From sequence record OQ955832.1: a stretch of 57,756 nt of DNA; one strand, 5' to 3'. Source of the stretch: Escherichia phage vB_EcoS_PJ16. The position numbers and the translations under genes are program-made. The notes under the pieces were generated by a model that did no database searches, had not been told where the DNA came from, and was given only the letters and a program-made list of their open reading frames with translations. Below are positions 20,384 to 23,358 of this stretch, one piece after another (the stretch's first letter is position 1; every line of letters starts with the position of its first letter).

Positions 20384-21403
20384 ATGAGTTACAAACAGAA
20401 TTTTCGCGACGTTGGCGCACCAGATACATTCCTGTCTAACTTTTCTGTAAGTTACTGGCAGGATACATCACTGTTTGTTGGTACTCGTTATTTCCCGGTA
20501 GTTCCTGTTAATCAGGCTGCTGGTAAGTTTCTGACTTACCCGAAAGGTTATTTCGGTCGTCCGGTTAACTCCAAACGTGCCGAAGATGGTGTTGCTAACA
20601 CTATTGGTTACAAAACCAAAAACCAGGGTTACACCGTTGATGACGATGCGATCCGTATCTTCATTTCTGACAAAAAACGTGCAAACGTTCAGAACGGTCA
20701 GCAACTGGATATGGAAGCGTCTGCAGTAACCACAGATGCGTTACTGATCAATAAAGAAGTGGATTTTGCTGAAAAATTCCTGACCGCTGGTAAATGGGGT
20801 CTTGATTTCCAGGGTAAAGACACGTCTCCGTCCACGGGTCAATTCCTGAAATGGTCTAATGCGAATGCCGATCCGATTGGTGATATCCTGTCACGTCGTG
20901 TTGCGTTCTCTCTGGCATCCGGTGGTCGCCGCTGGAATAAAGCACTGATGACGCTGGACGTGTATGACGCACTGACCCGTAGCCCGGCTGTTATTGACCG
21001 CATTAACGGTGGTTCTACCACTCAGAATCCGGGGATCGTGACTAAACAGGCACTGGCTGCACTGCTGGAAGTTGACGAACTGGAAATCATGCAGTCCGTG
21101 GTTAACATGGCTGCTGATGGCGTTGAAGACGGTGACGGCAATCCGCTGTCAGACTTCCAGTTTGCTAAAACTGGTGTGCTGATGCTCAACTATGTCGAAC
21201 CGACTGTTGGTAATATGAAACCTGTTGCGGCTGCGGGCTTCGTGTGGAACGAGTTCATCGGTCTGGGTGTTAACAACGGTCCGTCTATCCGCACCTATCC
21301 GGGTGTTGAAGGTCGTCGTGGTAATTTCGTTGAAGCGGAATTTGCCATTGATGTTCAGATGGTTGCACCTGACCTGGGCGTTCTGTTCTACGACGCGGTT
21401 TAA
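20384..21403 (+). CDS. Major capsid protein (putative)
   Basis: 339 aa; strong RBS; position after scaffold; followed by terminator. Confidence 0.6.
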   Translation: MSYKQNFRDVGAPDTFLSNFSVSYWQDTSLFVGTRYFPVVPVNQAAGKFLTYPKGYFGRPVNSKRAEDGVANTIGYKTKNQGYTVDDDAIRIFISDKKRANVQNGQQLDMEASAVTTDALLINKEVDFAEKFLTAGKWGLDFQGKDTSPSTGQFLKWSNANADPIGDILSRRVAFSLASGGRRWNKALMTLDVYDALTRSPAVIDRINGGSTTQNPGIVTKQALAALLEVDELEIMQSVVNMAADGVEDGDGNPLSDFQFAKTGVLMLNYVEPTVGNMKPVAAAGFVWNEFIGLGVNNGPSIRTYPGVEGRRGNFVEAEFAIDVQMVAPDLGVLFYDAV

Positions 21404-21423
21404 TAACAACTGTGGTATTATTA

Positions 21424-21451
21424 AGGGGTGGCTTATGCTGCCCCTTTTTTT
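21424..21451 (+). terminator. Rho-independent terminator
   Basis: GC stem ggggtggc...gctgcccc then T7. Confidence 0.65.
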
Positions 21452-21466
21452 CATGAGGTTAAAATC

Positions 21467-21820
21467 ATGCGTAATTCATATGATCCGTCACTGAAATATG
21501 TTTTCACCCGTCCGATGCTGTGGAATGGTAAACAGATGTCCGCTGGCGATAAAGTATCAACATCAAAAGCTATCCCGGCTGTTTTAAATGCCCTTGTGCG
21601 TATGCGCCACATTGAACCAGCTACTGCGACCGTTGAAGAACCAGTGACTGTAGCAACCGAAGAATCGGTATCAACCACAGCTGCTGAAATCCGACGTGAC
21701 GCGCCAAAAACCTATAACGTTTATGTTATGGGTATGCCGATGAATTCAGAATCATTCAGCAGTAAAAGTGCCGCTGCTGAATGGTGTGAATCTCAAGGCT
21801 TGACATATAACTATTCTTGA
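21467..21820 (+). CDS. Hypothetical protein (117 aa)
   Basis: Track ORF 21428-21820 trimmed to ATG 21467 with GAGG RBS. Confidence 0.45.
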   Translation: MRNSYDPSLKYVFTRPMLWNGKQMSAGDKVSTSKAIPAVLNALVRMRHIEPATATVEEPVTVATEESVSTTAAEIRRDAPKTYNVYVMGMPMNSESFSSKSAAAEWCESQGLTYNYS

Positions 21821-22573
21821 CCTATTGTTAGTTGTAGATAGTTTTCGTGGCGACTTTGCGGACTTTTTAGAAACTGACCACAAAGATAAATGCAAACGAA
21901 GAACGTTTTCTGATGGCGGCGTAATAGCCTGTAAGTCAGCAAGGTCTTCCGATTCCTTGTAAATAAATTCGGCGCACTGGCCCGGTGTGATTAATAATGG
22001 GCACCCACGAATGAGAGTATTGTGATTGATCGTCGTTCTTGCGCGCAAAGTCTGCTCGAAGACAGTATTCTCATTCGTGGGTAACAACGGGCGTGTCGCC
22101 TTAGTAAATCCCTCAAGGGTGCAGCGAATAATCCGGTAATGTCGTTGCCGTAAGCCGCACGAAACGTGGCACACAACAGGTAAGAGCATTTGGTCAATGC
22201 GAAGTTATTCGCGCAGACGTAAGGCCTAATTGTCGGCAGTGCTCTTATCGTTGTGGTGAATTGCAGTTCTCAGAAACAACCAGAAGATAAGCGTCTGGCA
22301 CCACAACACAAACACTCGCTGATAAGGAGGTGATCCTTATCTTGCTGGCGGGAAAGCCGCAAATCGTGGGTAAAGCATGTTGTGAAACATCCTGAACTGC
22401 GTGTCGTTTTACATAACTGGTTATTCACGTGTCACGCATAGGGGTATGTTGGGACGTCAGGTGTGGATGACCAGTTATGTAAAACCCTCATTATCACCCA
22501 GAGCCATTTGCCGTCTGTTTAAGACGGCTTTTTTCGTGCTAATATAACGAAAACATTTCTCACAGGTGATCAC
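21821..22573. other. ORF-free structured intergenic region (about 750 bp)
   Basis: All plus frames closed; minus ORFs lack RBS; long hairpins, palindromes and a terminator at its 3' end. Confidence 0.6.
22510..22534 (+). terminator. Rho-independent terminator
   Basis: Stem gccgtct/agacggc then T6. Confidence 0.7.
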
Positions 22574-22984
22574 ATGGCTATTACAGTTGAAGGTATTCGT
22601 TATTTGATCAGTGTCCCTGATGTTACTGATGAACAAATTCAGTGGTACATTGACAACGGTTATACAAATCCTCTCAGTATTTGCGTTGCTCTCTGTGATT
22701 ATATGGCGTCTATCGCCAGCAACGATACTGATATTAAAGTAGGTCCGATCTCACTCAGCAGTAGTCAGTCAGCAGACGCCTGGAATAAACTTAAAAAAGA
22801 TTTTATTTTACGTATTAATACTGGCGCTGATTCAGGTGGTGGTTTGTTAGGTAGTTTTATGGGTGTTGGTGGAGCTACATTAACTGGCGCTGGTATGCAA
22901 CCTGCTATTCAACGTGGTCAGTTCGACAACCCACCTGTAACACTTGAAAGCGGTGGTCGTGCACTTAACGAGGGTGAACGGTGA
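22574..22984 (+). CDS. Head-tail connector protein (putative)
   Basis: 136 aa; first gene of tail-proximal block. Confidence 0.4.
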   Translation: MAITVEGIRYLISVPDVTDEQIQWYIDNGYTNPLSICVALCDYMASIASNDTDIKVGPISLSSSQSADAWNKLKKDFILRINTGADSGGGLLGSFMGVGGATLTGAGMQPAIQRGQFDNPPVTLESGGRALNEGER

Positions 22985-23358
22985 TGGCAGACAAACGTCA
23001 AAGTGTCCTGAAAGGTGTTACTCGTGCACTTGCTGAAGTAGGTGAGGATTTGACGGTAAAACGTGTGACAACAGTTCCCAACCCGTCTAATCCTACATTA
23101 CCGGGTACAACCGTTACTGAATCACACACCTGTCGTGGTTATATTTACCCATTAGAAAAATGGGATCCGACTACTATGACCAGGATAACTACGACGATGG
23201 TAATTATGGATAGTCAGAGTTTTGAACCACGATTCGTTCCCGATCGGGGGGATGTTGTGGTTGATGAACGTGGTAAAGAATATCGCCTTCTTGATCGTCA
23301 AAACCCACGATTGTTAGGTGATGATATGGCGTTTATTCACCCTGTTGGAGCTGCCTGA
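22981..23358 (+). CDS. Head-tail joining protein (putative)
   Basis: 125 aa, start overlapping upstream stop. Confidence 0.4.
   Translation: MMADKRQSVLKGVTRALAEVGEDLTVKRVTTVPNPSNPTLPGTTVTESHTCRGYIYPLEKWDPTTMTRITTTMVIMDSQSFEPRFVPDRGDVVVDERGKEYRLLDRQNPRLLGDDMAFIHPVGAA

Follow-up and report, generated by a model that had tools for sequence, protein, structure and literature searches.

Transfer-messenger RNA (tmRNA, or SsrA) and SmpB form the universal bacterial ribosome rescue system, which is also an antibiotic target, and we know of no natural RNA regulator of it; phage-borne relatives of tmRNA had been assumed to occur only in a few actinobacteriophages and in Bacillus phage G. Phages and prophages encode trans-acting small RNAs (sRNAs), anti-sRNAs and lambdoid pR' leader RNAs, examples being lambda 6S RNA, StxS and AgvB/AsxR; to our knowledge none of these targets tmRNA or has a tmRNA-like frame. 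A 2025 review of phage-derived sRNAs makes no mention of tmRNA (PMC12197685). Here we describe a candidate for such an RNA in Escherichia phage vB_EcoS_PJ16 (hereafter PJ16; record OQ955832.1), of which a stretch of 57,756 nucleotides (nt), the window, was analysed. Its structural genes are interrupted by a gap free of open reading frames (ORFs) at 21821-22573, and the informative part of this gap is its first 170 nt, a tmRNA-derived module that is unrecognisable by eye and that we will refer to as module A. On the evidence given below the element is a chimeric RNA of an undescribed kind, in which an antisense arm directed against tmRNA is combined with a surrogate tmRNA template. No description of it or of its tag peptides was found in the searchable literature, subscription-only papers being outside that scope.

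The phage tmRNAs listed by the curators of the tmRNA databases are those of Bxz1-like mycobacteriophages and of Bacillus phage G, together with a form in DS6A that consists of the tRNA-like domain only (PMC4131195, PMC11915505). In the database pipelines the tRNA-like domain is the point of departure and truncated forms are discarded (PMC4131195, PMC11915505), and because module A has no such domain it escapes the searches that found the Bxz1, G and DS6A cases. It resembles the DS6A RNA in being a phage-encoded partial tmRNA, that of DS6A being thought to interfere with host trans-translation (PMC4131195, PMC11915505), but the two are opposites in content, as DS6A keeps the tRNA-like domain without a tag. 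With the coding piece of two-piece tmRNAs (RF01849, RF01850, RF04321) module A has in common a template carried on an RNA without the 3' tRNA-like half and needing a base-paired partner. However, each coding piece of a natural two-piece tmRNA brings its own 5' acceptor strand and is joined to a co-transcribed acceptor piece, the pairing being in the acceptor stem and helix 2, whereas the only candidate partner of module A is the complete tmRNA of the host, contacted at pseudoknot 1 (PK1), the resume site and the tag region. Another likeness is to the synthetic anti-ssrA or anti-tmRNA oligonucleotides used in cell-free translation and ribosome display, which are antisense to the tag-coding region and block trans-translation (PMC3384345), although those are man-made DNA with no surrogate template attached.

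Compared with tmRNA itself (RF00023), module A has a GCA resume codon, an A-rich linker with U at -5 and A at -4, a stop codon in the loop of helix 5, a 10-codon tag that starts A-N-D/E and ends in small hydrophobic residues and Ala, and H-type pseudoknots downstream. Unlike tmRNA, it has no acceptor stem (with its G3-U70 pair), T-arm, CCA or PK1, it has two pseudoknots rather than three, and it begins with a 5' arm antisense to tmRNA. The parts of the element, and the predicted signals that bound its transcript, are as follows.

21800-21828, plus strand: predicted sigma-70-type promoter, TTGACA at 21800-21805, 17-nt spacer, TATTGT at 21823-21828; 10/12 consensus matches.
21837-22004, plus strand: module A, conserved mobile core resembling the mRNA-like half of tmRNA.
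21837-21879, plus strand: putative anti-tmRNA arm, GAUAGUUUUCGUGGCGACUUUGCGGACUUUUUAGAAACUGACC; near-invariant and reverse-complement-like to E. coli ssrA nt ~55-107.
21880-21891, plus strand: A-rich linker of 12 nt, ACAAAGAUAAAU, 5' of the resume codon; U at -5, A at -4.
21892-21927, plus strand: tag frame, GCA AAC GAA GAA CGU UUU CUG AUG GCG GCG UAA UAG, that is ANEERFLMAA and two stops.
21910-21939, plus strand: stem resembling helix 5, its loop containing the stop codon; outer pairs CUGA 21910-21913 / UCAG 21936-21939.
21940-21972, plus strand: pseudoknot a; stem 1 CAAGG 21940-21944 / CCUUG 21955-21959, stem 2 loop CCGA 21949-21952 / UCGG 21969-21972.
21973-22004, plus strand: pseudoknot b; stem 1 CGCACU 21973-21978 / GGUGUG 21984-21989, stem 2 loop GCCC 21980-21983 / GGGC 21999-22002.
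22510-22534, plus strand: predicted intrinsic terminator, GCCGUCUGUUUAAGACGGC then UUUUUU; kept in phages Sasha and 9NA and in a close relative of PJ16 (our locus L012).

A profile search of fetched loci gave 84 copies of module A, 66 of them distinct, the PJ16 copy scoring E = 1.6e-51. Every one of the 66 distinct copies has exactly 10 sense codons followed by a stop, and between them they specify 16-18 different peptides, which include ANDDVVLMAA, ANDEQFLAVA, ANDDLMLMAA, ANEEMYLAVA, ANDNVFLAVA, ANDSEMRVAA and ANDNYALAAA (the E. coli SsrA tag is ANDENYALAA). The phage tags end in LMAA, LAVA, LAAA or RVAA, as against ALAA in the host. Changes within the frame are of the coding type, with synonymous exchange of GCA/GCU, AAC/AAU, CUG/UUG and GCG/GCC/GCU, and UAA, UAG and UGA are all used as stops. 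In PJ16 the resume codon GCA at 21892 has an in-frame UAG upstream, with no AUG, GUG or UUG between the two. No segment of module A varies less than the linker before it (mean variability 0.077); position -4 is A in 66/66 copies and -5 is U or C, positions which we take to match U85 and A86, critical in E. coli tmRNA. In E. coli tmRNA the corresponding linker, which separates PK1 from the resume codon, measures 11 nt. Judged by its pattern of substitution, the tag frame is under constraint at the level of the peptide.

The structure downstream is strongly conserved. In the helix-5-like stem 98.4% of cells are paired, and its pair 91/114 switches between A-U (29 copies) and G-C (33 copies) alongside a change of codon 8 between AUG and GCN. 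Stem 1 of pseudoknot a is 99.1% paired with 3 covarying pairs and is recovered independently by RNAalifold, while in stem 2 all cells are paired (100%) and 2 pairs covary. For pseudoknot b, stem 1 is 99.7% paired (RNAalifold and pair counts), an invariant GAUUAAUAA lies between the two stems, and a register-free test finds at least 4 base pairs (bp) of stem 2 in 64/66 copies, reached through at least 7 sequence solutions. Taken over 64 distinct sequences, 96.2% of cells pair, compared with 29-45% when the partners are slid by 1-3 columns; double-sided changes occur in 13/23 pairs, and 0/500 shuffles reach the observed score. A CUGAC...GUCAG pairing enclosing the tag was considered and dropped, as it is the helix-5 pairing that covaries instead.

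A preliminary description of the gap, made by a model from the letters alone, had offered a non-coding RNA, an intron remnant or a cis element as candidates and had proposed covariance-model searches. These return 0 matches at the Rfam gathering threshold over the whole PJ16 stretch, and there is no intron or ribozyme match even at E <= 10, so that the intron or ribozyme suggestion is not supported. What the sensitive mode does return are sub-threshold signals to tmRNA families only (beta_tmRNA and tmRNA_permuted), always centred on the tag region. The best of these score 12-32 bits against thresholds of 47-84, where authentic E. coli ssrA scores 292.8 bits.

Nowhere did we find the tRNA-like half. 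ARAGORN, with introns allowed and thresholds relaxed, calls no tmRNA in PJ16, whose genome is near-complete in the window, or in ~140 loci; at 80% stringency its calls are all spurious, and T-arm motifs in PJ16 are not above chance. The RNA begins at the 5' arm and so has no acceptor 5' strand, and the copies in Felix O1-like phages are boxed in by the genes of a tRNA array, tRNA-Ile ending 50 nt upstream of them and tRNA-Arg starting 41 nt downstream. Module A, without acceptor stem, T-arm or CCA, therefore cannot be charged, and because there is no tRNA-like domain in cis it is not a tmRNA by the defining test, either of the one-piece or of the two-piece kind. A two-piece tmRNA with an upstream T-arm was tried as a candidate and rejected, as the neighbouring T-arm-like hairpins have no acceptor stem or CCA and permuted-model scores are sub-threshold.

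In place of PK1 lies the arm. No conserved pairing is predicted by RNAalifold for the first 55 nt, 5' of the resume codon, and within the arm the number of conserved pairs is 0, on which grounds a PK1-like fold and a GUUUU/GAAAC helix there were both rejected. RNAduplex, on the other hand, pairs the PJ16 arm with nt 54-108 of E. coli ssrA at -42.0 kcal/mol (z = -3.9 against mononucleotide shuffles, as for all duplex z-scores here; 0/100 shuffles as good), a target that runs from the 3' part of PK1 through the A-rich linker and the resume codon to the end of codons 2-6. The other main-type arms give -40 to -50 kcal/mol with z of -3.3 to -6.9, and 0/100 shuffles in most lineages. Aligned to the reverse complement of ssrA (nt ~57-106), the arms have from 30/40 (PJ16) to 35/50 identities and score 16-20 where the best shuffles reach 14-16 (for PJ16, 16 and 14 respectively); the sense strand gives background. 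Within the arm, the invariant UUUUCGU complements the host tag codons (G)AC GAA AA, GCGAC complements GUCGC at the host resume site, and UUUGCGG complements CCGCAAA, the 3' strand of host PK1. The Felix-type arms (GCGUCUAUUUUGC) and the Chaseviridae-type arms (GUAGUUUUC ... GCGAUUAUUUUU) are complementary to the same ssrA site by different sequence.

We considered whether the arm might instead pair with the resume region of its own RNA, and rejected this, as such pairing is far weaker. The PJ16 arm forms a duplex of -42.0 kcal/mol with the host segment compared with -16.7 kcal/mol with its own linker, tag and helix 5, and across lineages the figures are -42 to -48 and -14 to -17 kcal/mol respectively. 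Two restrictions apply to the arm data: 85-nt arms that include untranscribed promoter DNA give spurious long RNAduplex results and uninformative z-scores, and per-position counts of arm variants are uninformative, one group being misregistered in columns 1-20 of the alignment (A4) and divergent lineages pairing in another register. From the modelled duplexes we lean towards the view that the arm does pair with host tmRNA in vivo.

Module A is not confined to PJ16, a 9NA-like siphovirus of the genus Sashavirus (99.6% identity to Sashavirus BDX09P1 over 21400-23000). The segment 21836-22004 is ~95% identical in unrelated phages, always within unannotated DNA, the carriers at high identity being Cedarrivervirus Sf11, phage C1, the N4-like phage Pollock, the BASEL phages Bas77-81 and Klebsiella siphoviruses. 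Matches were found in 238 phage records by megablast and in 704 by sensitive blastn, and 157/5426 complete E. coli genomes have it in prophages. The carrier groups are Ackermannviridae (CBA120, ViI, Det7), Felixounavirus, G7C-like and N4-like phages, Lederbergvirus HK620, siphoviruses and one Vibrio phage; there are Chaseviridae copies in phiEcoM-GJ1, Erwinia Y2, Pantoea SSEM1 and Aeromonas phiA050, and partial copies in P1 and Erwinia phages. Phage Sasha lacks ~21828-22165 at the same locus and hence has no module A at this site. Module A thus represents a large family of tmRNA-derived RNAs of enterobacterial phages, apparently undescribed.

The surroundings of the copies differ, although any tRNA genes near module A always share its strand. 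HK620 and E. coli prophages carry module A between pR'/qut and the late terminator, in the same leader as the phage sRNAs mentioned above, which it also resembles as a short transcript that would base-pair with a host RNA. We note that in HK620 (L024, 1733-2440) and at another such locus (L028, 3780-4774) this pR'-to-late-terminator leader is constitutively transcribed, which implies expression in lysogens as well as in lytic growth, and that lambda 6S RNA is encoded at this position, which in Stx phages is occupied by tRNA and stx genes. In Bas79 (L002, PQ850629; 2456-2982), as in other records, hypothetical proteins (here Bas79_0054 and Bas79_0055) are annotated across the element on the opposite strand, and these are probably spurious gene calls. 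In Pollock (L004, KM236242; 1566-1895) four tRNAs are annotated on the strand opposite to the ARAGORN and Rfam tRNA model calls.

Transcription of the gap from the plus strand, with termination at its end, had been suggested by the preliminary description, and this reading is supported: the gap appears to be a promoter-to-terminator locus for a non-coding RNA of ~700 nt (21800-21828 to 22510-22534), and not a missed gene. Both signals come from consensus scans and the transcript is a prediction; its start would be at ~21835-21837, and the terminator was located as a stem at 22510-22528 followed by a T-run. A promoter with 10-11/12 matches is found at the same fixed distance from UUUUCG in 17/66 distinct upstream contexts, Felix O1-like copies have their own TTGACA-17-TATAGT promoter, and promoters adjoin module A in several independent lineages. 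The Pollock copy terminates ~100 nt past the second pseudoknot.

Module A RNA probably blocks or reprograms host ribosome rescue. The explanation that we favour for the data as a whole, without being confident of it, is a docking model: the RNA would bind to host tmRNA, cover the tag template there and offer a template of its own instead. In this model the arm would hybridise to host tmRNA using the single-stranded host tag codons ACGAAAAC as a toehold, and pairing would then extend across the host resume site into PK1, which would be remodelled. The duplex would mask the host resume codon and tag template and would place the phage resume codon 12 nt beyond its end, much as PK1 lies 11 nt from the host resume codon. 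The alanine-charged tRNA-like domain of the host, with SmpB, would deliver the phage template to stalled ribosomes, and rescued products would receive (A)ANEERFLMAA instead of (A)ANDENYALAA. Actual translation of the phage tag from such a hybrid of arm and tmRNA is a tentative proposal, about which we have more doubt than about the scheme as a whole. The fullest form of it, a parasitic coding piece in which a chimeric two-piece tmRNA rescues ribosomes and adds a C-terminal tag specified by the phage, is possible but somewhat more doubtful again.

Several points weigh against the docking model. It is built on sequence and on computed folding and duplexes, so that transcript, duplex and tagged protein are all predictions, and the target used for the arms was E. 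coli ssrA alone. The arms of Erwinia and Aeromonas phages predict a host variant, AAAAUAAUCGCAAACGAC, which was not found in those genera; this one prediction of compensatory change across hosts gained no support, and the arm positions concerned would then be G-U wobbles, by which pairing may still occur. Some arms pair weakly with E. coli ssrA: for one locus (L043) 26/100 shuffles were as good, for another (L072) 8/100, and a short cut of the GJ1 arm gave z = 0. Where a hairpin of the kind described below as module D precedes module A, it shares the first nucleotides of the arm as the 3' strand of its base, and the toehold would therefore be sequestered until processing. Finally, ribosomes may be unable to use a template attached to tmRNA only through an imperfect duplex of ~40 bp, and a hybrid with two sets of pseudoknots might not fit.

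The main alternative to docking with a surrogate template is a pure antisense inhibitor or decoy, in which the arm, for example, blocks the host template, disrupts PK1 or recruits RNase III. The 3' part would never be translated, but would either stabilise the RNA or act as bait for factors such as SmpB, ribosomal protein S1 or RNase R that bind the mRNA-like and pseudoknot region of tmRNA. This alternative draws on the same antisense arm and has precedents on both sides, as synthetic oligonucleotides complementary to tmRNA inhibit trans-translation, blocking release from stalled ribosomes with an increase of the bound fraction from 0.06 to 0.79 (PMC3384345), and the DS6A RNA offers a mirror image, a similar molecule being inhibitory to tmRNA, perhaps by titrating SmpB (PMC4131195, PMC11915505). 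It accounts for the arm but not for conservation at the codon level: 10 codons and a stop in 66/66 copies, synonymous changes, interchangeable stops and U-5/A-4 are left unexplained, and because a decoy would be constrained at the level of nucleotides rather than of the peptide, we regard this alternative as unlikely, if the most serious of those considered. If the arm is set aside, module A could be an autonomous tmRNA mimic without a tRNA-like domain, which sponges S1, SmpB or RNase R or enters ribosomes in some other way, the complementarity of the arm being a relic of an inverted duplication of ssrA. Strong conservation of the tmRNA-like helix 5 and pseudoknots would suit this, as would the failure to find compensatory change with the host in Erwinia and Aeromonas. 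However, the arm is among the best conserved segments despite having no fold, and it complements host tmRNA far better than its own region, the opposite of what is expected of a self-hairpin relic in decay; we therefore think this quite improbable.

A genuine two-piece (permuted) tmRNA, whose acceptor piece (T-arm, acceptor stem and CCA) is encoded at a distance and escaped notice, would explain the weak matches to the permuted models RF04321 and RF01850 and the T-arm-like stem-loops beside some copies (L060, L018, L043, L101, L012, L028). We hold this to be very improbable, given that those matches score 16-32 bits against gathering thresholds of 47 and 84 and align the tag region only, that the stem-loops have no acceptor stem or CCA and most copies, PJ16 included, have no T-arm at all, that 0 tRNA or tmRNA calls were made in a window covering nearly the whole genome, and that the RNA starts at the arm, which the promoter adjoins, leaving no acceptor 5' strand. 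We give as little weight to the possibility that the region has no function in trans, and is a decaying pseudogene, a scar of tRNA/tmRNA recombination, or a cis-acting leader or processing region for the head-tail genes. The region is modular and variable, Sasha has no module A at the site, and there is tRNA-like debris in related loci; but ~95% identity of module A over unrelated families implies recent spread and purifying selection, the contexts are very different (lambdoid late leader, tRNA arrays, between structural genes), and both the covariation and the codon-level conservation speak against decay. Least credible of all is an intron remnant, ribozyme or cis element centred on the long hairpin of the gap (module B below), for although this hairpin is stable it occurs in 4 loci only, and no intron or ribozyme family is matched even at E <= 10.

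Were the docking model correct in its fullest form, tmRNA would have its first natural antisense regulator, and trans-translation would for the first time be seen to be reprogrammed by a virus. Should the RNA block or rewire trans-translation, it would add a new layer to phage takeover of host translation quality control, could serve as a natural template for the design of antisense agents against tmRNA, and would account for gene-free regions long noted beside phage tRNA arrays and in lambdoid late leaders. Hundreds of well-studied phages of E. coli, Salmonella, Klebsiella, Erwinia and Aeromonas have the element, which in their genomes bears either no annotation or that of spurious proteins, and among the carriers are therapeutic and model phages (Felix O1-like, CBA120/ViI-like, HK620, N4-like and the BASEL collection). 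The SmpB-like domains that were recently predicted in CoCoNuT systems of anti-phage defence (PMC11090510) may furthermore find a substrate in the element.

The remainder of the gap is a chain of modules in the same orientation as module A, some common to hundreds of unrelated phages and others restricted to Sasha/9NA-like phages. These modules and the genes that flank the gap are listed here.

20384-21403: major capsid gene, upstream flank of the gap.
21428-21820: small ORF with a GTG start after the major capsid gene, upstream flank of the gap.
22005-22085, plus strand: module B, long hairpin; 4 loci.
22078-22167, plus strand: module C, conserved block; 13 loci, always downstream of and co-oriented with module A, and also in one E. 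coli prophage.
22171-22256, plus strand: module D hairpin, CACAAC-AGGU-AAGAGCA ... UGCUCUU-AUC-GUUGUG with a variable apex.
22266-22509, plus strand: modules E/F, in Sasha/9NA-type phages only (alignments with Sasha, 9NA and L012; nhmmer).
22574 onwards: first head-tail gene, ATG at 22574, with head-tail and tail genes from here, in agreement with the annotation of phage Sasha.

The gap is free of ORFs as the preliminary description had stated, the longest on the plus strand being of 45, 37 and 48 amino acids (aa). Mechanical ORFs of 145, 68 and 52 aa on the minus strand do not alter this: no conserved protein-coding gene emerges by homology, 5 gap ORFs giving 0 family matches in Pfam and PHROG, and the 145-aa ORF is broken by module junctions that are absent or rearranged in relatives, and copies of the element differ by 1-nt indels. 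A GC content above that of the surroundings had also been claimed; there is a marginal rise, 0.49 in 21900-22350 compared with 0.43-0.45 in the flanks, but it is not distinctive because the capsid gene region is at 0.50-0.54. The long hairpin on which the preliminary description placed weight is real, with a 21-bp stem (~22003-22023 / 22062-22082) of -40.4 kcal/mol (z = -4.8; 0/200 shuffles equal), and the palindrome ttgcgcgcaa forms its apex at 22039-22048. Comparison with relatives, however, gives a divided answer, since the hairpin is in only 4 loci while the first ~170 nt of the gap are widespread in unrelated phages. The gap is thus not a single element centred on the hairpin, and the preliminary description, though correct that the region is non-coding, transcribed from the plus strand and terminated as predicted here, singled it out on the least informative of grounds.

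Module B is absent from Sf11, Pollock, HK620 and others, and because it occurs in only 4 related loci we regard it as an insertion between conserved modules and as their least conserved part. Its apex CGCAAAGUC (22044-22052) is complementary to GACUUUGCG of the arm (21852-21860), which could be a form of self-masking; the chance of such a 9-nt match by accident is ~0.1. Module D gave 31 nhmmer hits, all on the strand of module A, and 55 distinct instances; its basal helix occurs in three covarying forms, CACAAC/GUUGUG, CUAUC/GAUAG and GAAAUCUGG/CCAGUUUUC. A motif within it, GGUAAGAGCA, resembles the 3' half of a tRNA D-arm, and D-type hairpins enclose the T-arm-like stem-loops (e.g. GAGGG-UUCGAAU-CCCUA) near the copies named above, again without acceptor stem or CCA.

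Within modules E/F the block 22310-22405 is conserved even in 9NA and includes the hairpin GAUAAGGAGGUGAUCCUUAUC (22321-22341). This carries UAAGGAGGUGAUC (22323-22335), a 13-nt perfect complement of the 3' end of 16S rRNA, which holds the anti-Shine-Dalgarno sequence. The hairpin bearing this motif is kept in Sasha, 9NA and L012, though 9NA is without the tmRNA-like module. It is followed by a UUG and 16 codons, in which differences between PJ16 and 9NA are mostly non-synonymous. In 9NA (L187, KJ802832; 977-1522) the coding sequence gp42 is annotated over the conserved non-coding block and the terminator, and its true start is probably the ATG homologous to that at 22574 in PJ16. A degenerate tRNA-like insert is seen in L012 (4170-4660, minus strand), consisting of a D-arm-like AGCUCAAUGGCGAGCU and a perfect T-arm, GUUGG-UUCGAUU-CCAAC, which ARAGORN calls only at relaxed stringency; at the same site PJ16 has only the stem UGUGGUG (22251-22257) / CACCACA (22299-22305). 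Upstream of the gap, a terminator-like hairpin (21423-21446; 10 bp then a T-run) lies directly after the major capsid gene and overlaps the GTG of the ORF at 21428-21820, which suggests a transcriptional boundary or attenuation point ahead of the non-coding RNA promoter.

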